From: a virus
Taxonomy: Duplodnaviria; Heunggongvirae; Uroviricota; Caudoviricetes
Reading direction: 5' to 3' (one strand)
Length of the DNA: 9,328 nt
Virus record (IMG/VR): IMGVR_UViG_2751185961_000008
Below the pieces are notes generated by a model. It was not told the origin of the DNA and made no database searches. It saw only the letters and a list, made by a program, of their open reading frames with translations. How positions within the stretch are numbered: position 1 is the first letter of the stretch; every line of letters starts with the position of its first letter. Positions 371 through 9,328 of this stretch are shown here, in pieces. A program made the position numbers and the translations under genes.

Positions 371-949
371 TTAGCCGTTAAGTTTAACTGCCAGACCTGC
401 GACATATTCCCCTTGATAACGAGCAATAGACAGTTCTTCCTGGCTGGGCTGGCGTGAACCGTCACCGCCTGCGATGGTGGTTGCGCCGTACGGCGTACCG
501 CCGCGAACCTGTGAAACGTCAAATAATTCCTGCGCTGCGTAGCCAATGGGGACAATCACCATGCCGTGATGCGCAAGGGTCGTCCAGGTGGATGTGATGG
601 TTTGTTCCTGACCGCCGCCAGTACCGGTGGAACTAAAGACGCTCGCCAGTTTTCCGTATAGTGCGCCGGAAGCCCACAGGCCGCCCGTCTGGTCGAGGAA
701 GGTACGCATTTGACCGGACATGTTACCAAAGCGGGTAGGTGTACCAAAAATAATGGCGTCGTAATCGGCCAGTTCTTGCGGGGTTGCAACCGGTGCAGTT
801 TGCGTTTTACCGCCTGCTTTTTCAAATAATTGCGGCGGCATGGTTTCCGGTACACGCTTAACGACAACTTCTGCGCCATCCACTTTGCTTGCACCCTCAG
901 CAACTGCGCGTGCCATCGTTTCAACATGTCTAAGGATATGCTTTATCAT
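371..949 (-). CDS. wrbA: wrbA (NAD(P)H:quinone oxidoreductase, flavodoxin-like), 5' end replaced by prophage DNA; hybrid ORF, probably non-functional
   Basis: From about residue 9 onward ([33 protein letters not shown]...[13 protein letters not shown]) the ORF matches WrbA. The first 8 codons (MIKHILRH) replace the native N-terminus MAKVLVLYYSMYGHI, so the first beta-strand and FMN phosphate-binding loop and the native promoter are missing. The hybrid ATG overlaps the integrase stop codon. Confidence 0.8.
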
Positions 950-950
950 T
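905..950. other. attL prophage-host junction (att core) within the 5' end of wrbA; approximate
   Basis: WrbA-matching sequence ends and phage-derived sequence begins in the interval around 915-930 (native ...GHIETMARAV versus observed ...[10 protein letters not shown]). The integrase 3' end directly abuts or overlaps this point. Exact core boundaries need attR or attB for comparison. Confidence 0.5.
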
Positions 951-2256
951 TTGAAAAATATAATTTTATTTCATCCTCCTGGTCACTTTGGGGCACGTCT
1001 GGGGCACGGGCATTAAGGACATTATTCAGCATAGCAACCTGAGTCACGCTGCACTCAGGCATCCATGCACCATAAACATTGTAGACCATGCTGGCGCTGG
1101 AGTGCCCCATCTGTGATGCAATAAATGTCGGGTTTGCTCCGGCAGATAAAGCCCAGCACGCATAAGTATGGCGTGACTGATATGCTTTCCGGGCTCTTAT
1201 ACCCGCTCTTTTCATTGCTGAGTCCCATGTTGCCCCGATGGAGCTTACCGCATAGTTAATACCCGCCTTGTGATTCTTGCGAACGATTTGCGGACAGAAA
1301 ACAAAAGTGCACTCGTGCAAAATTGTTCTTCCGTACTCGCGTAATTTAACGGTGATCTGATGCTGCCTGCCAAGACGAGTAAGCATCGCCTGGTTTTTAA
1401 GTGCTTCAATGGCTGGTGCCAGAAGATGTATAACCCGGTCGGTGCCAGCATCAGTCTTTGGTAGCGTAAAATCACCTATTTTTGTAAAATTTCTTCGCAC
1501 TGTTATCGTGCCAACTTTCAGGTCGATATCCTCCCATGCAAGTGCGGCAATTTCACCATGTCGCATCCCCGTAAAAACAGCCACTGTCCAGAGGTTTTTG
1601 GTCTGTTGATGATGACAGGCATCAATGAGGCGACCAAACTCCTCTCTGGTCAGTGGATCCGGCACAGGTTTTGATTTCCTCAGTGGTGTTATTGAATTAA
1701 ACGGGTTTTTCTCCAGATACCCGTTTTCAGCGGCAAAGCTGAACATCCCGGCAGTTGTTGTCATGTAATAGTTTACCGTGGGGACTGTTCTTCCTTTGTT
1801 GGTGGAAGTGTTTTTCCTGCTTTCCTTTTCCCCAGTCAGTAAATCTTTCCTGATGAACAGCAAATCCTCTTTTGTAATCGAGGATGCCAGTCTACCCACG
1901 CCAAGCCTCGGTAGCATATTTTTCATCACTGATTGATAACGATTTAAGGCGTTACTACTGATTTCCATTGCTTTCAGAGTAAGCCATTTCTGTGCCAGTT
2001 CACCGACGGTGATATCTTTTTTTACCAGGCCAAATAGCTTCAGGTTAGGTGAGTCAGGGAATCGCTCGGCATAATCAAACGTTCCTGTTCTGATTGCAAA
2101 GCAGACCGAAGCCCTTAACTCACCAGCGATCTTTCTGTTTTTCGGTGTATCGGGCACGCGAAGATTTTCGCGCACTCGTTTACCCCTGTACTTAAACGTT
2201 ATTCGGAGTTTTCCTCCGTGATTTTCAACGCCGGCTGGATAGGCTGAATTCGCCAT
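946..2256 (-). CDS. int: phage integrase, tyrosine recombinase family (436 aa from the ATG at 2256; ORF-track alternative GTG start at 2280)
   Basis: Long ORF adjacent to the att junction. C-terminal catalytic region shows the tyrosine-recombinase pattern ([15 protein letters not shown] ... [35 protein letters not shown]). AGGAGG sits 4 nt upstream of the ATG at 2256, so this start is preferred over the upstream GTG. Confidence 0.9.
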
Positions 2257-2612: not shown

Positions 2613-2637
2613 AAGAAAAAACCGCCCGAAGGCGGTT
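2613..2637 (-). terminator. rho-independent terminator for leftward transcription (UUCG tetraloop hairpin plus U-tract)
   Basis: Minus-strand RNA reads AACCGCC-UUCG-GGCGGUU followed by UUUUCUU. It lies directly after the stop of ORF 2639..2899 and before xis. The plus strand has an A-run before the hairpin and no T-run after it, so it is unidirectional. Confidence 0.65.
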
Positions 2638-2638
2638 G

Positions 2639-2899
2639 TCAGTTGATTGATGTGCGGCGCATTTTTCGAAGGCTGGCAATATGCTTTTCCTTCTCAATTT
2701 CCGCTTTAATCATATGTAGTTCGTTGTGATCGATTCGCTCAAATTCTGCATTAAATGAGTTAATTGATGCGGCTCTGGTTCTCCCATCCAGCCTTCGGAA
2801 GATCACCTGTGTCAGCGTTACCTTGCAGACTTGAACCGGATAGTTGTTGGCGTCGACGAAGGACTGCCCGCGCTGGATCAGAACGAACACAGGTAGCAT
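2639..2899 (-). CDS. hypothetical small protein downstream of exo (86 aa; possibly shorter from the GTG at 2890)
   Basis: ORF in the same orientation as the Red genes, 38 bp after the exo stop and ending 2 bp before the terminator hairpin. The SD-like AAGGA is adjacent to the ATG, which is suboptimal spacing; the GTG three codons downstream has better spacing. No recognisable domain. Confidence 0.45.
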   Translation of the reverse strand: MLPVFVLIQRGQSFVDANNYPVQVCKVTLTQVIFRRLDGRTRAASINSFNAEFERIDHNELHMIKAEIEKEKHIASLRKMRRTSIN

Positions 2900-2937
2900 T
2901 CCTTAACTGTCATATCATTTGCACCTCGTTGCTACGG

Positions 2938-3618
2938 CTATCGCCATTGCTCCCCAAATACAAAACCAATTTCAGCCAGTGCCTCGTCCATTTTTTCGAT
3001 GAACTCCGGTACCATTTCGTCAAAAACCTCCATGTATTTTTCATCCCGTTCGACCACGACATAATGCAGGCCTTCACGCTTCATACGCGGGTCATAGTTG
3101 GCAAAGTACCAGGCATCTTTTCGCGTCACCCACATGCTGTACTGCACCTGGGCCATGTAAGCCGACTTTATGGCCTCGAAACCACCGAGCCGGAATTTCA
3201 TGAAATCCCGGGAGGTAAACGGGCATTTCAGTTCAAGGCCGTTGCCGTCACTGCATAAACCATCGGGAGAGCAGGCGGTGCGCATACTTTCGTCGCGATA
3301 GATGATCGGGGATTCAGTAACATTCACGCCGGAAGTGAACTCAAAGAGGGCTCTGGCGTCGTTCTCGTACTGTTTTCCCCAGGCCAGCGCTTTAGCGTTA
3401 ACTTCCGGAGCCACACCGGTGCAAACCTCAGCCAGCAGGGTGTGGAAGTAGGACATTTTCATGTCAGGCCATTTCTTTCCTGAGCGGGGTTTTGCTATCA
3501 CGTTGTGAACTTCTGAAGCGGTGATGACGCCGAGCCGTAATTTGTGCCACGCATCATCCCCCTGTTCGACAGCTCTCACGTCGATCCCTGTACGTTGCAG
3601 GATAATGTCCGGTGTCAT
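2938..3618 (-). CDS. exo: lambda-type Red exonuclease (Exo / Red-alpha), 226 aa
   Basis: Protein [65 protein letters not shown]...FVFGEQWR is near-identical over its full length to my recollection of phage lambda Exo. The start overlaps the bet stop (ATGA), as in lambda. Confidence 0.95.
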
Positions 3619-4400
3619 GCTGCTACCTTCTGCTCTGTGACTTTCTGTTTCAGGAATCCAAGAACCTTCACAGCTTCAGCCTGTGTTAGTTCTGAAGATG
3701 TGTAAATGTTGCGGCGAAAAATCCGGGAACAGAGCGGCAACAGGTCGTCATCCCACGTTTTTTCCATGGAAGTAAGAAGGGCGTTAATTTCCGACATGGT
3801 TTCTTCGTTAACCGGGGTGATGTCGCGTTCCGGCTGACGTTCTGTAGTATATGCAGTATTTTCGACAATACGCTCGGCTTCATCCTTGTCATAGATGCCA
3901 GCAAATCCGAAGGCCAGGCGAGCACACTGAATCATGGCTTTGTGCCGTAACATCCGTTTGGGATGCGACTGCCACGGTCCGGTGATTTCTCTGCCTTCGC
4001 GGGTTTTGAATGGTGCGCGGCGACATTCATCCATCCACTCGGTAACGCAGATCGGGTGATTGCGATCTTTGCGGTAAATCCGGCATGTACAGGACTCATT
4101 GTCCTGCTCAAAGTCCATGCCATCAAACTGCTGGTTTTCATTGATAATGCGGGACCAGCCATCAACGCCAACCACCGGAACGATGCCGTTCTGCTTGTCA
4201 GGGAAGGCGTAAATTTCTTTCGTCCAGGGATTAAGGCCGTACTGGTTGGCGACGATCAACAATGCGATAAATTGCGCATCGCTGGCATCACCTTTAAATG
4301 CCGTCTGGCGAAGAGTGGTGATTAGTTCCTGTGGGTCGACAGAATCCATGCCGACACGTTCAGCCAGCTTCCCTGCCAGCGTTGCGAGTGCTGTACTCAT
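3615..4400 (-). CDS. bet: lambda-type Red single-strand annealing protein (Bet / Red-beta), 261 aa
   Basis: Protein [100 protein letters not shown]... matches lambda Bet in length and sequence. Gene order gam-bet-exo is conserved. Confidence 0.95.
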
Positions 4401-4405
4401 CCGTT

Positions 4406-4702
4406 TTATACCTCTGAATCAATATTAATTTGGTGACGGGCGATGGTTTCAGCCATGTAGCGGATGTGTTCTGCCATGCGTTCCTGAAAATCGACATCGT
4501 CATCAAATGCACGGGAAATAGCTTTTTTGCTGGCCCCGTGACGTTGCAGATTATCGATGCATAGCGATTCAAACAGGTGTTGGGGCAGACCTTTTTCCAG
4601 GTCGTCTGCCAGCTCAGCTTCAGTTTCTTCACGGGCAATTTGCTGGTAGTGTCGTGCCCATGACTGCTCTTCAATGCGATCGGGGATAAGCCAGGCATTC
4701 AT
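4406..4702 (-). CDS. gam: Gam, RecBCD inhibitor, short (GamS-length, 98 aa) form
   Basis: Protein [98 protein letters not shown] matches the C-terminal 98 residues of lambda Gam. The start codon overlaps the stop of the upstream 690-aa gene. No in-frame N-terminal extension equivalent to the 138-aa GamL is available. Confidence 0.9.
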
Positions 4703-6771
4703 GATTTATCACCTCCGAAATTTTCAAGCCTGTTGGCAATCATGATGGCGATATCAGGGATTGCTGGCGCTGTGGCTATACATGCGGGGTTGGCGCACAA
4801 ACCATAGACGGCGGCAATCACGAGCTGTCTTTTCCAGTCGAGAGTTACTGGCTCAGAATTGGCGTCATCGCCGGACGTATCACTGCCTGGCTCGTTCTGA
4901 ACAACGGTTTCGCCCTCCTGAGCGGCATCAACAGAGTTTTCCTGAATGATCTTCTCCTCAGTTTGTGCTGAGTCTTCTCCATCAGCGGCGTCATTTTCTC
5001 CAAAAGTTTCTGTGTAAGTGCTATCGCCCATTACCGCACTACAGTCAGGGCAGTTACCCCCGCCAGTCTGACCACAGACGCGGCAGTTTTTTTCCAGCTC
5101 CGGTTGCGCTACTGGCCCTGGCTGTTGCTCTTCTGGCCCGTTTTGTTGCGTATCCGGGCTGTTTTGTCCCGCTTCTGGGGCAATTTGTTCCACTTTGGAC
5201 TGATTCTGGTCCTCAGTGTCGCGAGTCTGGATCCCCTTCACCCACTTCGGATCAGCAGGGTTACTGATGCCTTCAACGAATTCTCCACGCGAGGCAGCCA
5301 GTAATTTGTCGGCATCGACTGGATTTTTTGGGGGGATGTTTTCCCTGGCTTTATTGAGTTCCTCCCTCAGTTCCTGGTATTTCGTTTCTACAGATGAGAC
5401 ATTTTCCAGTGATTGCGTGTCCTCATTATGTTTAACTGGAATTTCTTCCACTGATTCAGGCGCTGCCTGTTCATTAGCCATTGTGTCCGATGCTTGTTGC
5501 TTTTCTTCATCGCCATGTTTTCCTTCTGCTGTTCCGCGCTGCGGCATCGGTGCTGATGAGCGACCGCAGGCAATTTCCACGATTTCCGGATCCGGGTTAG
5601 CGTGATCGGTTTCGGTCAACACTTTGTTGAGATATTCAGTCACGCGTGCCGGGATGGCCTCAATGCCGATTGGTGCATCTTTCACGGAAGCCACCACAAT
5701 GGCGCGGGAATAATCCAGCCCACCGGGCATGGCGATAAATTTGTCGCGAAAAACAGAAAAGGGCGGCTTATTCTCTGACACGATTTCTTCAACGCGTTTT
5801 GCGTGTGCTGGGTGCAGGTTATAAATATCCACATCCATTGAACGGGCCAGAACGCCGGTGGCTACATCTCGTGCGAGTGATGTCTTATCATGTTTGAATC
5901 CTTCACCACGATCGGTAATATTTCCGCCGCCAGCGTTAGCACCGGAAGGCGTACGGGTAATGCCTGAAACATAATTTCCGTTCTGCCATTCTTTTGTCAG
6001 CAGGCCCTGATCAAGGTAGTCAGTTTTCATCCAGGTGGAAATGAACTTGTCGAATTCAGCCGGGCTGATGCGATGATTTGCAGAGTGGGGGAATGCTTTC
6101 CCTACAGATTCAGTCAGGCGACTAAGGTGATAGTTCGTCAGTTTATCCAGTTCATGATGCGCGGCGCGCACAGCAGTAAGCAGGCTCTGAAGGTAACTGT
6201 CCTCTGTGTCCATCTCCATACGGATCACGTTATTGCGTTGTTCTGGTGTGGCATGATGCCGGTATTTTCCATCTTCATCTTTGCTGAATAAGAAGAGGTG
6301 AAGGAAGCGATGAGTAAGGCTCAGAGTGGCGACGGGAATTTCACACTCAGAACAGTCATCGTCGCTGTCCGGGGATTCGCTTTTCTCCACATCATCCGGA
6401 ATAGTTCCGTCCAGGTTATCGTTGTCATCGCCAGCAGTTGTGGCATCTTCACCGTTGATGTTGTCATCGAAGGGGATAGCCATCATGGTGATGCCATCGT
6501 TACCGCCTTTTTCATAGCGGTTGCAGAATTCAGTATCAAACACGCCTTCCGGTGGAAGGTCATTCACGACGGGGAAATTTACGCGAACGGGTTTTTTGAA
6601 ATCATCCTCGTCGTAGCCTGCATCGTCCATGGCTGCAATGCAGCGGGAAACTGCGACAGAAAGTTTTCTGGCCTCGGTCCAGAAAAAACCGCCTTTGATG
6701 CCAAGGCGTTTTCTGACTTTATCGTTTTTTGCTTCGCAGTGTAGTGCAAAAGTCTGTTTATCAGCGCTCAT
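4699..6771 (-). CDS. large (690 aa) highly acidic hypothetical protein with a CxxC-x(n)-CxxC zinc-ribbon-like motif; function unknown
   Basis: Uninterrupted 2073-nt ORF in pL-operon orientation, translationally coupled to gam. It contains long Asp/Glu-rich low-complexity stretches (for example [43 protein letters not shown]; [49 protein letters not shown]) and the motif [16 protein letters not shown]. All plus-strand ORFs inside it are in alternate frames. Confidence 0.8.
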
Positions 6772-6844
6772 TGTATTTAAACCTCTGGCTGGATTAGAAT
6801 TAGCGGCCCTTTGTCTGATTTCTCCGAATACGGTGACGCAGGGA

Positions 6845-6873
6845 GAAATCCGGTAGCCTGCGCTGCCGGATTT
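6845..6873 (-). terminator. possible hairpin terminator or RNA processing element between ORF 6879..7265 and the 690-aa gene; weak
   Basis: Inverted repeat AAATCCGG / CCGGATTT with a 12-nt loop, just downstream (leftward) of the stop of ORF 6879..7265. The flanking U-tract is better on the plus strand than on the minus strand, so function and direction are uncertain. Confidence 0.3.
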
Positions 6874-6878
6874 TTATT

Positions 6879-7265
6879 TCAGTGGAAGGTTGCCTGGTTT
6901 GCTGTTTTGTGAGTTGTTTTTCCCTTTTCGTGCTGGCATTCAGGGCAGTCGCACTCAGAATTTTCTCTTGCAAACTCAAGAGCCTGTGCAAGTGTATGGA
7001 TTTGTTGTACTCCAATGTTGCTTCTGACAACTTCACGTGCAGCATGAATATATGGGCTTGGTGTTTTGCCATTTAACCCACATAAAACAAAACGACTGTC
7101 CTTATATTCGTTATTTCCAACTTCTGTAAGCACTGAAAAAGAAAATACAAAGTCGATTTTGTATTCTTTGCATATTTTACTGATGCGTTCTGCAATTTCT
7201 TTGAGTTCATTTATTGCATCAGGACTGGTTTCGGAAAATATTTCATTTTGCGCAAGTTCTTTCAT
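6879..7265 (-). CDS. hypothetical protein (128 aa) with C-terminal Cys cluster (CDCPEC); AT-rich accessory gene
   Basis: ORF in strongly AT-rich DNA, MKELAQNEIFSETSPDAINELKEIAERISKICKEYKIDFVFSFSVLTEVGNNEYKDSRFVLCGLNGKTPSPYIHAAREVV...ENSECDCPECQHEKGKTTHKTANQATFH. No confident homology recalled. Weak SD (GGAAA about 9 nt upstream). Confidence 0.5.
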   Translation of the reverse strand: MKELAQNEIFSETSPDAINELKEIAERISKICKEYKIDFVFSFSVLTEVGNNEYKDSRFVLCGLNGKTPSPYIHAAREVVRSNIGVQQIHTLAQALEFARENSECDCPECQHEKGKTTHKTANQATFH

Positions 7266-7348
7266 TTTGATTTTTCCGTGATTGATAATTAATGCGGTTT
7301 TATTTCGGCTTGTCTGTTACAGATATGGAAGGTGTATTTTATTACTCG

Positions 7349-7570
7349 TCACAACGACGCTGCTTTTACGGGTAAGCCATCGCGCCCGATGAAAACTTTA
7401 ATCATGCAGTCGGTAATGCATGTTTTTGTTGTGAAGTTACGAATATAGAGTTTTCTCTTTTCAATATTGTTTGCTGAAGCGATATATGTCCGACCTTCAT
7501 GAAGAACATAATCGCCAGGCGTCACGCACTGACGTGGTATTTCATCAGTTCCGAAGTGATGAGCAATCAT
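7349..7570 (-). CDS. hypothetical small protein (73 aa from the ATG at 7570; ORF-track GTG start at 7588)
   Basis: [76 protein letters not shown], with GGAG 6 nt upstream of the ATG at 7570. The upstream GTG and ATG lack an SD. Function unknown. Confidence 0.45.
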
Positions 7571-7744
7571 AATTATCTCCATTTTCACAAATGAACTTTG
7601 TTGATGCGGTGCCTGGTGCCTCCAGGTGACGTTAACCAGTTAACAACTAACGCCGGGTCAGGGGACGATGACTTTCCGTGACATCCTGTCGGTTTAACTG
7701 TTCCGCGTGCGCATAGCCGCATTCACCGCATCACAAAATTCACT

Positions 7745-7787
7745 TTAAAAAGGGCGGACATCAGCAATCGGCAAACCGATGTCCGCC
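7745..7787 (-). terminator. rho-independent terminator for leftward transcription inside the 440-bp non-coding spacer
   Basis: Perfect 10-bp inverted repeat GGCGGACATC ... GATGTCCGCC with a 15-nt loop. On the minus strand it is followed by CUUUUUAAAG; on the plus strand there is no T-tract after the stem. Confidence 0.55.
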
Positions 7788-8026
7788 AAGGGCTACACAC
7801 AGCAATGTTGTTATTCACAACCGGAAGCGCACGGTCGAAGAAATCTAACGACAAGCCTTCAATGGGAAAGAGTCTTCGCCGTGCACTTTCGTGTTGTACC
7901 CTGGCTTTCAGGGTAATGTCTGTTCAGTAAACTGAGAGTGCCGGAACTTACCCGTGTCCGGCGCACGATCTCCACCTCACCCGTGGAGAACTCCTCAACT
8001 ACAAACCCCGTAAGGAGAGTGAATTT

Positions 8027-8236
8027 ATGACACAAGAAGAAAAAGTGATGTTTCTGATGCGGCTGGCTGTCGATACCTACAACACACAATTCAGGGAGAA
8101 AGATATACCTCAAAAGGCAGTTCCTGCCGCGGTAGATAAGGGCGGTGCTATTGCCGTATTTTACGATGCATTTGAATCATTTTTTAATGAAAAACTCGAC
8201 GCTGTTAGCGGCTTCGGAACATCGAGTAATAAATAA
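8027..8236 (+). CDS. hypothetical small protein (69 aa) encoded opposite to the surrounding pL-direction genes
   Basis: ORF MTQEEKVMFLMRLAVDTYNTQFREKDIPQKAVPAAVDKGGAIAVFYDAFESFFNEKLDAVSGFGTSSNK, with a strong SD (TAAGGAGAG) about 8 nt upstream of the ATG. It is preceded by about 440 bp without convincing ORFs. Its 3' end overlaps the 3' end of the convergent ORF 8205..8564 by 32 nt. Confidence 0.55.
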   Translation: MTQEEKVMFLMRLAVDTYNTQFREKDIPQKAVPAAVDKGGAIAVFYDAFESFFNEKLDAVSGFGTSSNK

Positions 8237-8564
8237 CGTTCATTACGGTTCTTAAACAACAATCAGTGGGCTTGATGTTGTTCTTTTCAAGCTCACTTGC
8301 CATCACTTCCATTATTCTTGCACTTACACGAATTATTTGGTGGCTGTAAGCGATGCAACTGTCGCTGATATTGCTGTTTATTTCTATTACTTCATTTTCA
8401 CCATTAGCATCAACTTCGGATGCGCTGTTTTCATTATCCTGTTTCAGTGCTTTTTCTGCCATCTGGATGCGTGTCAGCGTTGCGGAATTTGGGCTAAGTC
8501 GATAAACCTGTCTGGCATCTTCCAGAAGCAGGGCGATAATGTGCTTCAGTTCTGTTTCGTTCAT
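8205..8564 (-). CDS. hypothetical protein (119 aa from the ATG at 8564; ORF-track start at 8585 is probably TTG)
   Basis: ORF MNETELKHIIALLLEDARQVYRLSPNSATLTRIQMAEKALKQDNENSASEVDANGENEVIEINSNISDSCIAYSHQIIRVSARIMEVMASELEKNN..., with GGAG 6 nt upstream of the ATG. It lies 31 bp downstream of ORF 8596..8844 on the same strand, consistent with a two-gene operon. Confidence 0.5.
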   Translation of the reverse strand: MNETELKHIIALLLEDARQVYRLSPNSATLTRIQMAEKALKQDNENSASEVDANGENEVIEINSNISDSCIAYSHQIIRVSARIMEVMASELEKNNIKPTDCCLRTVMNVIYYSMFRSR

Positions 8565-8595
8565 AGTTAACTCCGGTAGTTGCAATTTATTAATA

Positions 8596-8844
8596 TCAGG
8601 CGGTCAGCTCTTTAAGCTTCTGAACTGCTTTATTCATTTCATCCATACAGTCGATGAATTCGTCCAGTTTAAGCTGCATTTTTCCGGCGGCCTGAAGAAT
8701 TTCAAGTTTTAAGGGCGCAAGTTTTTTGTTGAATGCATCATCTTCCTGGCGTTTTTTCTCCGCAATTTCGGCGGCTTTCAGCAATTCTTCAGCCTGTTTT
8801 CTGAGTATTTCTGGTGAAGGTGAAACTGCTTTGAGGTTATTCAT
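8596..8844 (-). CDS. hypothetical helical protein (82 aa from the ATG at 8844; ORF-track ATG at 8901 gives 101 aa); possibly the 3' part of a gene interrupted by IS1
   Basis: ORF MNNLKAVSPSPEILRKQAEELLKAAEIAEKKRQEDDAFNKKLAPLKLEILQAAGKMQLKLDEFIDCMDEMNKAVQKLKELTA, with GGAA 6 nt before the ATG at 8844. The same frame stays open upstream through 8902-8997 with no start codon, up to the insB stop codon inside IS1. Confidence 0.5.
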   Translation of the reverse strand: MNNLKAVSPSPEILRKQAEELLKAAEIAEKKRQEDDAFNKKLAPLKLEILQAAGKMQLKLDEFIDCMDEMNKAVQKLKELTA

Positions 8845-8982
8845 TTCAGGTTCCTGTTGTTGCAGAATTAATTTGTTGCATTCTCTGCGTGAGCGTTTCA
8901 TTGCAGATTCGCACTTCTTGCAATAAATGGCTCTCCCGTCACGCTTGCTGGCATCTGAATAAAAATCATTGACTGATTTTGT

Positions 8983-9328
8983 GGTAATGACTCCAACTTA
9001 CTGATAGTGTTTTATGTTCAGATAATGCCCGATGACCTTGTCATGCAGCTCCACCGATTTTGAGAACGACAGTGACTTCCGTCCCAGCCTTGCCAGATGT
9101 TGTCTCAGATTCAGATTATGTCGCTCAATGCGCTGAGTGTAACGCTTGCTGATAACGTGCAGCTTTCCCTTCAGGCGTGATTCATACAGCGGCCAGCCAT
9201 CCGTCATCCATACCACGACCTCAAAGGCCGACAGCAGGCTCAGAAGACGCTCCAGTGTGGCCAGAGTGCGTTCACCGAAGACGTGCGCCACAACAGTCCT
9301 CCGTATCCTGTCATACGCGTAAAACAGC
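8983..9328 (-). mobile_element. IS1 family insertion sequence, divergent variant, partial (right-end terminal repeat at 8983; element continues beyond window end)
   Basis: Sequence from 8983 (GGTAATGACTCCAACTTACTGATAGTGTTTTATGTTCAGATAATGCCCGATGAC...) matches the reverse complement of the IS1 right terminus and insB region as recalled, with scattered substitutions (roughly 10 percent by eye). The terminus lies 15 nt beyond the insB stop, as in IS1. Confidence 0.9.
8998..9328 (-). CDS. insB: IS1 transposase InsB reading frame (C-terminal part; frame continues open to window end)
   Basis: Translation ...[109 protein letters not shown] matches IS1 InsB with a few substitutions. The ORF-track start at 9291 is an internal GTG, not the real start. 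Confidence 0.85.

Follow-up and report, generated by a model that had tools for sequence, protein, structure and literature searches.

Does the IS1 copy that abuts the early operon of a prophage in E. coli FC23 lie between genes, or has it cut into one? The question arises in a stretch of 9,328 bp (hereafter the window), the reverse complement of the whole draft contig MECV01000050.1 (assembly GCA_001722155.1), in which the reading frame of a small gene, ORF F, stays open upstream as far as IS1. A preliminary description of this DNA had proposed that IS1 either interrupted a longer gene or, lying between genes, detached the operon from its native promoter. FC23 (MECV00000000) is one of the isolates in a study of non-serotypeable Shigella-like isolates, where gyrB grouped it with E. 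coli and where its assembly is given as 4.66 Mb, with an IncX1 plasmid and no virulence genes listed (PMC5674244).

The element that carries the junction is a lambda-like prophage at wrbA, and the window shows its delayed-early pL operon. On the minus strand IS1 is followed by a gene remnant, a 119-aa gene (phrog_2982), kil, a 128-aa gene and a 690-aa RecE-family gene, and then by gam, bet, exo, DUF4222, a DUF1233 excisionase-like gene, a 436-aa integrase and wrbA, all on the same strand. As in lambdoid pL operons, the genes for KilR, Gam, RecT (Bet) and YqaJ (Exo) through integrase are co-oriented and the series ends at the attachment site. There the wrbA ORF (371-949, minus strand) lies beside that of the integrase (946-2256, minus strand), its ATG overlapping the integrase stop codon; its product begins MIKHILRH, lacks the canonical N-terminus of WrbA and leaves positions 1-12 of the NCBIfam profile unmatched. 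The prophage junction leaves a hybrid, probably impaired wrbA at this site. Between kil and the 119-aa gene, ~600 bp (7589-8204) carry short ORFs on both strands and no confidently assigned gene; a plus-strand ORF (8027-8236) is annotated as hypothetical in relatives. Rfam gave no match in the window, 7589-8204 included.

The left contig end lies ~107 bp into ISEc13 and the right end 346 bp into IS1. Insertion sequences thus bound the 9.3-kb contig on both sides, so that the assembly stops at both ends; since it stops inside IS1 on the right, prophage viability cannot be concluded from the window. ISEc13 itself sits within the yccJ terminator hairpin, where homology with an uninterrupted yccJ-agp region (L006) breaks. 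The features at the two ends and at the junction are:

1-107: terminal ~107 bp of ISEc13 (IS4 family), 99% identical to annotated copies
8205-8564, minus strand: 119-aa gene, phrog_2982 (PHROG match), the first intact gene past the insertion
8596-8844, minus strand: ORF F, 82 codons from Met156 (ATG 8844), called as an 82-residue product on the contig; encodes a long C-terminal helix
8899-8901, minus strand: ATG of Met137, start of a mechanically called 101-codon ORF, without a preceding Shine-Dalgarno motif
8983-9328, minus strand: right-hand 346 bp of IS1 (IS1X2-type variant), 100% identical to annotated E. coli IS1 and IS1X2-type copies
8983-9005: right terminal inverted repeat of IS1, GGTAATGACTCCAACTTACTGAT, its outer boundary; homology to IS1-free relatives ends at 8982/8983
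8998-9000, minus strand: TAA stop of insB, the IS1 transposase frame, in frame with the interrupted gene

The IS1 junction and the open frame beside it

Both the visible end and the transposase of the element are those of IS1. Its right inverted repeat begins at 8983 (reading GGTAATGACTCCAACTTACTGATAG) and has the form of the family, ~23 bp, imperfect and starting GGTRATG...CCAACTTA. The transposase matched Pfam PF03400 (DDE_Tnp_IS1) at E 9.2e-58 over profile positions 23-131 of 131; NCBIfam NF033558 (transpos_IS1) scored 97.9 bits, below its cut-off of 100, the product being cut short where the contig stops. The same variant was read as a complete 768-bp copy, with both inverted repeats, in another locus (L020): positions 8983-9005 of the window are identical to its right end and pair with its left repeat, GGTAATGCTGCCAACTTACTGAT. 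The insA and insB genes are oriented like the pL operon.

The ATGs at 8844 and 8901 lie 139 nt and 82 nt from the IS1 end at 8983; these distances, the IS1 end and the insB stop at 8998-9000 had all been given in the preliminary description, and both our reading of the sequence and its translation agree with them. Between the second ATG and the insB stop, the minus strand (8902-8997) reads VGVITTKSVNDFYSDASKRDGRAIYCKKCESA, which is 32 sense codons without ATG, GTG, TTG or stop, again as described. The caution that such openness can arise by chance was well placed: ~14% of composition-matched random 32-codon stretches were stop-free, as were 33% of the contig's own 32-codon windows. Thus the stretch is significant because of homology and not because of its 32-codon openness alone. 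It is made up of 27 codons for residues 110-136 of a 237-residue protein found in relatives, and of five more (VGVIT) from the 15 IS1 bases past the insB stop. Judged by that homology, 8902-8982 is genuine coding sequence and 8983-8997 is the tail of IS1 past the insB stop. The frame that insB and the interrupted gene share is a one-in-three coincidence. A translational InsB::ORF F fusion is ruled out by the in-frame insB TAA that stands between the two.

An identical junction, with 0 mismatches over 5954 nt, was present in the independent Logan assembly of SRR3581386 (L015), which breaks 29 nt into IS1. Thus the junction is read-supported and not the artefact of a single assembler. Exact scans for a junction 32-mer found it in none of the viral, genome-representative and metagenome contig collections. 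When the junction region and the entire non-IS part were compared by megablast with 5426 complete E. coli genomes, no copy of the junction emerged, and the alignments all stopped at 8982. A repeat search around the junction gave chance-level repeats only, and we found no description of this particular IS1 insertion in the literature searched.

A 237-codon gene downstream of N in IS1-free relatives

Comparison with IS1-free homologous prophages, which the preliminary description had proposed as a check, revealed an in-frame upstream coding continuation of 327 nt. Megablast of 8200-8982 against phage records returned six records from four distinct phages, two of the records (PhiR5_2 and phiSTEC1589-Stx1c) at 98.6-99% identity, and E. 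coli JNEC-KY204 was 99.8% identical to the window over 2617-8982. Homology ended exactly at 8982 in PhiR5_2, phiSTEC1589, JNEC-KY204, O104:H4 strains and loci L003-L012, and the IS1-free relatives matching up to that base included eight draft or metagenome loci. Beyond 8982 the relatives continue in the same frame to give a single 237-codon ORF, the exceptions being two frameshifted loci. The part of this gene that is left in FC23 is:

8596-8982, minus strand: 3' remnant of the interrupted gene, codons 110-237 plus stop; 0 mismatches against the intact gene in L013 and L004

The intact ORF has the hallmarks of a translated gene. Its ATG lies 3 nt past the N stop (TGA TTG ATG) and is preceded by a GAGG Shine-Dalgarno motif, and the start context GCGAGGT-N5-ATG recurs in homologues of only 50-58% identity. 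RefSeq carries a CDS for it (237 aa, WP_000211196.1), and the uninterrupted allele was found in 61 of the 5426 complete E. coli genomes. At the protein level, phrog_2539 matched the intact product (L013 allele) end to end (positions 1-229 of 229, E 7.1e-131). Among the 67 representatives retrieved from a 5.8-billion-cluster protein collection, most were full-length homologues at 32-58% identity, from Kluyvera, Enterobacter, Citrobacter, Klebsiella, Salmonella, Serratia, Providencia and other Enterobacterales.

These observations bear on whether the open stretch arose by chance, with ORF F (82 or 101 codons) a stand-alone gene and IS1 intergenic upstream of it. Such a reading can appeal to the frequency of open random stretches (~14% over 32 codons) and to several annotations that call only 82 or 101 residues even for the intact ORF. 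Against it, protein conservation across genera extends over the upstream 136 codons (as the full-length PHROG match and the full-length homologues show), a Shine-Dalgarno motif precedes the ORF, whose ATG is coupled to the N stop, and RefSeq now gives 237 residues. We regard it as extremely improbable: the relatives' continuous ORF, the phrog_2539 match and the full-length homologues rule out a chance feature. The same ORF, running across the insertion point, refutes the proposal that an intergenic IS1 merely detached a promoter, as an explanation of the open frame, and bears out the other proposal, that IS1 interrupted a longer gene.

Thus the insertion is intragenic: by comparison with the relatives, IS1 lies after codon 112 (...CTRCGQ-TKS, then the break) of a 237-codon gene that in them lies downstream of N. 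The full-length 237-residue protein cannot be made from the interrupted gene, and ORF F is, by the same comparison, the surviving tail of that gene and not a complete gene. In IS1-free E. coli relatives the upstream order is pL, N and then the interrupted gene directly after N. The earlier placement of IS1 at the promoter-proximal edge of the operon therefore holds only loosely, since the interrupted gene is the one after N and both N and pL lie further upstream in relatives.

Among six distant loci examined, the gene follows N directly at two; it does so in homologues L021-L024 and not in L025-L028. In the latter group it was seen after sieB and other small genes in a Providencia prophage and after an HNH/AP2 gene in a Serratia locus; in a metagenomic phage (L027) the family member lies in the late-regulatory region, between a KilA-N gene and the DUF968 gene that precedes Q.

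Annotation of the ORF is inconsistent: 82 residues on this contig and 62 others, 101 in many drafts with the intact ORF (some annotations start at the ATG of Met137 even where the gene is intact), and 237 in current RefSeq and phage records. Conservation, read from sequence alignments, supports the 237-residue form. The 90%-identity cluster that contains the 237-aa protein also holds the unrelated 119-aa protein encoded downstream (window 8205-8564), probably through an artefact of clustering, so that cluster sizes for the 237-aa protein are not to be taken at face value.

As an event, this is IS1 entering an accessory gene of a prophage, ordinary and of a kind already well known; the conserved internal start in the gene family, treated below, is the sole mildly novel element. 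The significance of the insertion is chiefly for annotation, namely the status of ORF F and the contig ends caused by insertion sequences. The early-gene IS1 mutants of lambda, among which r14 is said to be a classical polar mutant with IS1 in cII, resemble it in two respects: i) IS1 within a gene of a lambdoid early operon abolishes the gene product; ii) an element of ~768 bp, able to terminate transcription, comes to lie between an early promoter and distal genes. Unlike those mutants, where the essential rightward replication region is hit, FC23 has the element in the leftward pL operon, in an accessory gene downstream of N, and since it lies outside the essential region, polarity is not expected to be lethal for phage growth.

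Two other disruptions of the gene family provide closer comparisons. In P0078 (WP_367745781.1, E. coli) IS1 disrupts the same family in nearly the same allele, and the product runs on into the left end of IS1 to finish in GDAANLLI; unlike in FC23, the insertion is at ~codon 222, near the C-terminus, instead of codon 112, and the IS1 left end is GGTGAT as against GGTAAT. The P0078 insertion thereby truncates the C-terminal helix, which the FC23 insertion spares. In loci L011 (6275-6987) and L012 (3343-4055), with product P0056, the full-length protein is likewise lost and the C-terminal ORF left open; here 1 nt has been deleted from an A6 run at codon 82, so that the gene falls into two ORFs of 136 and 101 codons.

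The far side of IS1 and the distal genes

The reading that we prefer, to which we assign a probability of roughly 0.9, is that an IS1X2-type IS1 transposed, probably by simple insertion, into the 237-codon gene (after N in relatives) of the pL operon of the lambda-like prophage at wrbA. Target duplications of IS1 are usually 9 bp, and for this site the break point places the predicted duplication as follows:

8974-8982: predicted 9-bp target-site duplication, TGATTTTGT on the plus strand; ACAAAATCA on the gene strand, where it encodes Thr110-Lys111-Ser112

A simple transposition with a 9-bp duplication would repeat ACAAAATCA at both IS1 junctions and would leave an N-terminal fragment ending ...CGQTKS-GNAANLLI. 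The far junction, after N and codons 1-109, would be expected to join ...CAGATGCGGGCAGACAAAATCA to GGTAATGCTGCCAACTTACTG... (also ...TGCGGGCAGACAAAATCA to GGTAATGCTGCC...). The prediction of the fusion product is sound, since the independent P0078 product ends in the corresponding manner, ...DCM-GDAANLLI. We looked up 12 predicted N-terminal::IS1 fusion products, which allowed for target duplications between 7 and 11 bp, for two variants of the IS1 left end and for six haplotypes of the N-terminal part, as exact matches in a 15-billion-protein collection that includes the junction-bearing Logan assembly, and none was present. Their absence is weak evidence that the N-terminal half may not adjoin the far IS1 end; annotation as a pseudogene or a small sequence difference would explain it equally well.

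IS1 may instead mark the boundary of a rearrangement, in which an adjacent deletion or IS1-IS1 recombination after the insertion took away or moved the N-terminal half along with N and the immunity region, and possibly the remainder of the prophage, so that the segment from int to ORF F would be a prophage remnant. Besides the missing fusion products (0 of 12), this would fit the insertion sequences at both contig sides (ISEc13 at 1-107 and IS1), the contigs with this exact RecE-family allele, all of which are 9.3 kb or shorter, and the absence of listed virulence genes from FC23 and its 4.66-Mb assembly (PMC5674244). On the other hand, all of this evidence is indirect: a truncated gene frequently receives a pseudogene annotation and no protein entry, and draft contigs break at any IS copy whatever follows. 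The 100% identity of the remnant with intact alleles is what a recent, simple event would give. Moreover, IS1 transposition usually ends in simple insertion. We consider a rearrangement unlikely, though it deserves to be kept in view.

With a simple insertion as the preferred reading, the consequences for the distal genes would depend on the state of the prophage. In a repressed lysogen little change is expected, because pL is silent there. IS1 is polar, and N-modified RNA polymerase overrides polar insertions of this sort; N-mediated release of polarity was reportedly described by Adhya, Gottesman and de Crombrugghe in 1974. In lambda-like phages nutL lies upstream, so that an IS1 downstream of N would lie past nutL too. 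After induction, N-modified polymerase would largely read through IS1, and expression of Kil, the RecE-family gene, Gam, Bet, Exo, Xis and Int would continue, if perhaps reduced. With the region transcribed, the C-terminal 82 residues would remain translatable from ATG 8844 and its conserved internal ribosome-binding site.

A more active role for the element can be imagined, namely that transcription out of its right end, by read-through from the IS1 promoter or from a hybrid promoter at the junction, drives ORF F, kil and the RecE-family/gam/bet/exo genes in the repressed lysogen, which would resemble the sbcA-type activation of recET in the Rac prophage. IS1's own transcription does point into the operon, the downstream block does contain a RecE-family gene, Gam, Bet (RecT) and a lambda-type exonuclease, and IS1 itself holds one weak promoter-like match (score 9/12; 9143-9115, minus strand). 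The promoter and terminator scan of the junction, however, returned no hybrid promoter or other promoter-like site across it and no minus-strand terminator, and, by eye, TTGGAG near the IS1 end is not followed at 16-18 nt by an acceptable -10 hexamer. IS1 represses its own weak promoter through InsA; Kil is an inhibitor of FtsZ, and its constitutive expression would harm the cell. We therefore hold such rewiring to be improbable. The earlier view that the insertion makes the prophage defective or rewires the block is not supported by the present analysis.

Domains of the interrupted protein and its candidate internal start

An AlphaFold model of the intact protein, built on a 56-sequence alignment, had a mean pLDDT of 83 and comprised the following parts:

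residues 9-81: winged-helix-like domain (AlphaFold model)
residues 93-130: beta-rich zinc-ribbon segment (AlphaFold model)
residues 131-150: helix (AlphaFold model)
residues 151-160: disordered linker (AlphaFold model, pLDDT < 50)
residues 166-236: single long helix (AlphaFold model)
8911-8922, minus strand: second CxxC of the zinc ribbon, Cys130-Lys-Lys-Cys133 (translation, alignment and model)

In the model, the zinc ribbon links the winged-helix-like N-terminal domain to the long C-terminal helix. Of the two CxxC pairs of the ribbon, the first (Cys104-Cys107) is encoded ahead of the insertion point, and IS1 thus falls between them. The alignment showed an N-terminal domain of ~95 residues that is strongly conserved, a zinc ribbon that is an optional insert (many members of the phrog_2539 family are without it) and a conserved C-terminal helical domain.

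Pfam and NCBIfam gave nothing above threshold for the protein of the interrupted gene, and a precomputed PF27269 (YonG_N) mark on some homologues was rated only "faint". Foldseek against PDB gave no match at E <= 0.001, the weak winged-helix resemblances (PadR/LmrR, BlaI, Fur, Rpc34) all having E > 0.06. Matches in BFVD were mainly to the zinc ribbons of HNH endonucleases or uncharacterised proteins, a few uncharacterised phage proteins among them. Side matches among the PHROGs (endonuclease VII, HNH endonuclease, Lar-like) were confined to residues ~99-163. We did not accept the gene as an endonuclease VII, HNH or Lar-like family member, the matches being restricted to the zinc ribbon.

The Lar resemblance was weighed separately. 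The small restriction-alleviation genes ral of lambda and lar of Rac lie downstream of N, and the interrupted gene shares with them the N-proximal part of the pL operon; its zinc-ribbon residues 99-163 also match phrog_5558, "Lar-like restriction alleviation protein", at E 2.5e-9. The differences are that i) the zinc ribbon alone matches, and the ribbons of HNH and endonuclease VII families match the same segment equally well; ii) locus L024 carries a separate Ral gene further downstream of its family member. Membership in Lar/Ral was not adopted, as the part that matches phrog_5558 is the optional insert.

The insertion leaves intact both ORF F and a candidate ribosome-binding site for it:

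8852-8855, minus strand: AGGA, Shine-Dalgarno-like, 7 nt ahead of ATG 8844

Met156, encoded by that ATG, is conserved in at least 90% of the family despite the variable, disordered linker around it. We surveyed the DNA of eight homologues, with products 32-99% identical to the query protein. In seven of the eight (L001, L021, L023 and L025-L028), an aligned ATG or GTG is preceded by AGGA, GAGGA, GGAG or AAGGAGGA at a spacer of 6-10 nt; the eighth has AAGGTGA at the aligned position. For six of the seven, the aligned site is the sole in-frame start with a core Shine-Dalgarno motif in the gene, and the seventh (L021) has one further site, the only other among ~1700 codon positions.

From this pattern, the phrog_2539 family may encode two nested products, the full-length protein and an 82-residue C-terminal helix translated from the conserved internal Shine-Dalgarno motif and start; we rate the chance of this at somewhat below even. 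The 82-residue product may accordingly survive the insertion in FC23, its putative ribosome-binding site and ORF being left intact. The conserved site amounts to a testable hypothesis on a widespread phage gene next to N. If the family does encode nested products, the IS1 insertion in FC23 and the frameshifts in L011 and L012 would be natural separation-of-function alleles that keep the short product only, which would hint that selection in lysogens acts on the short product.
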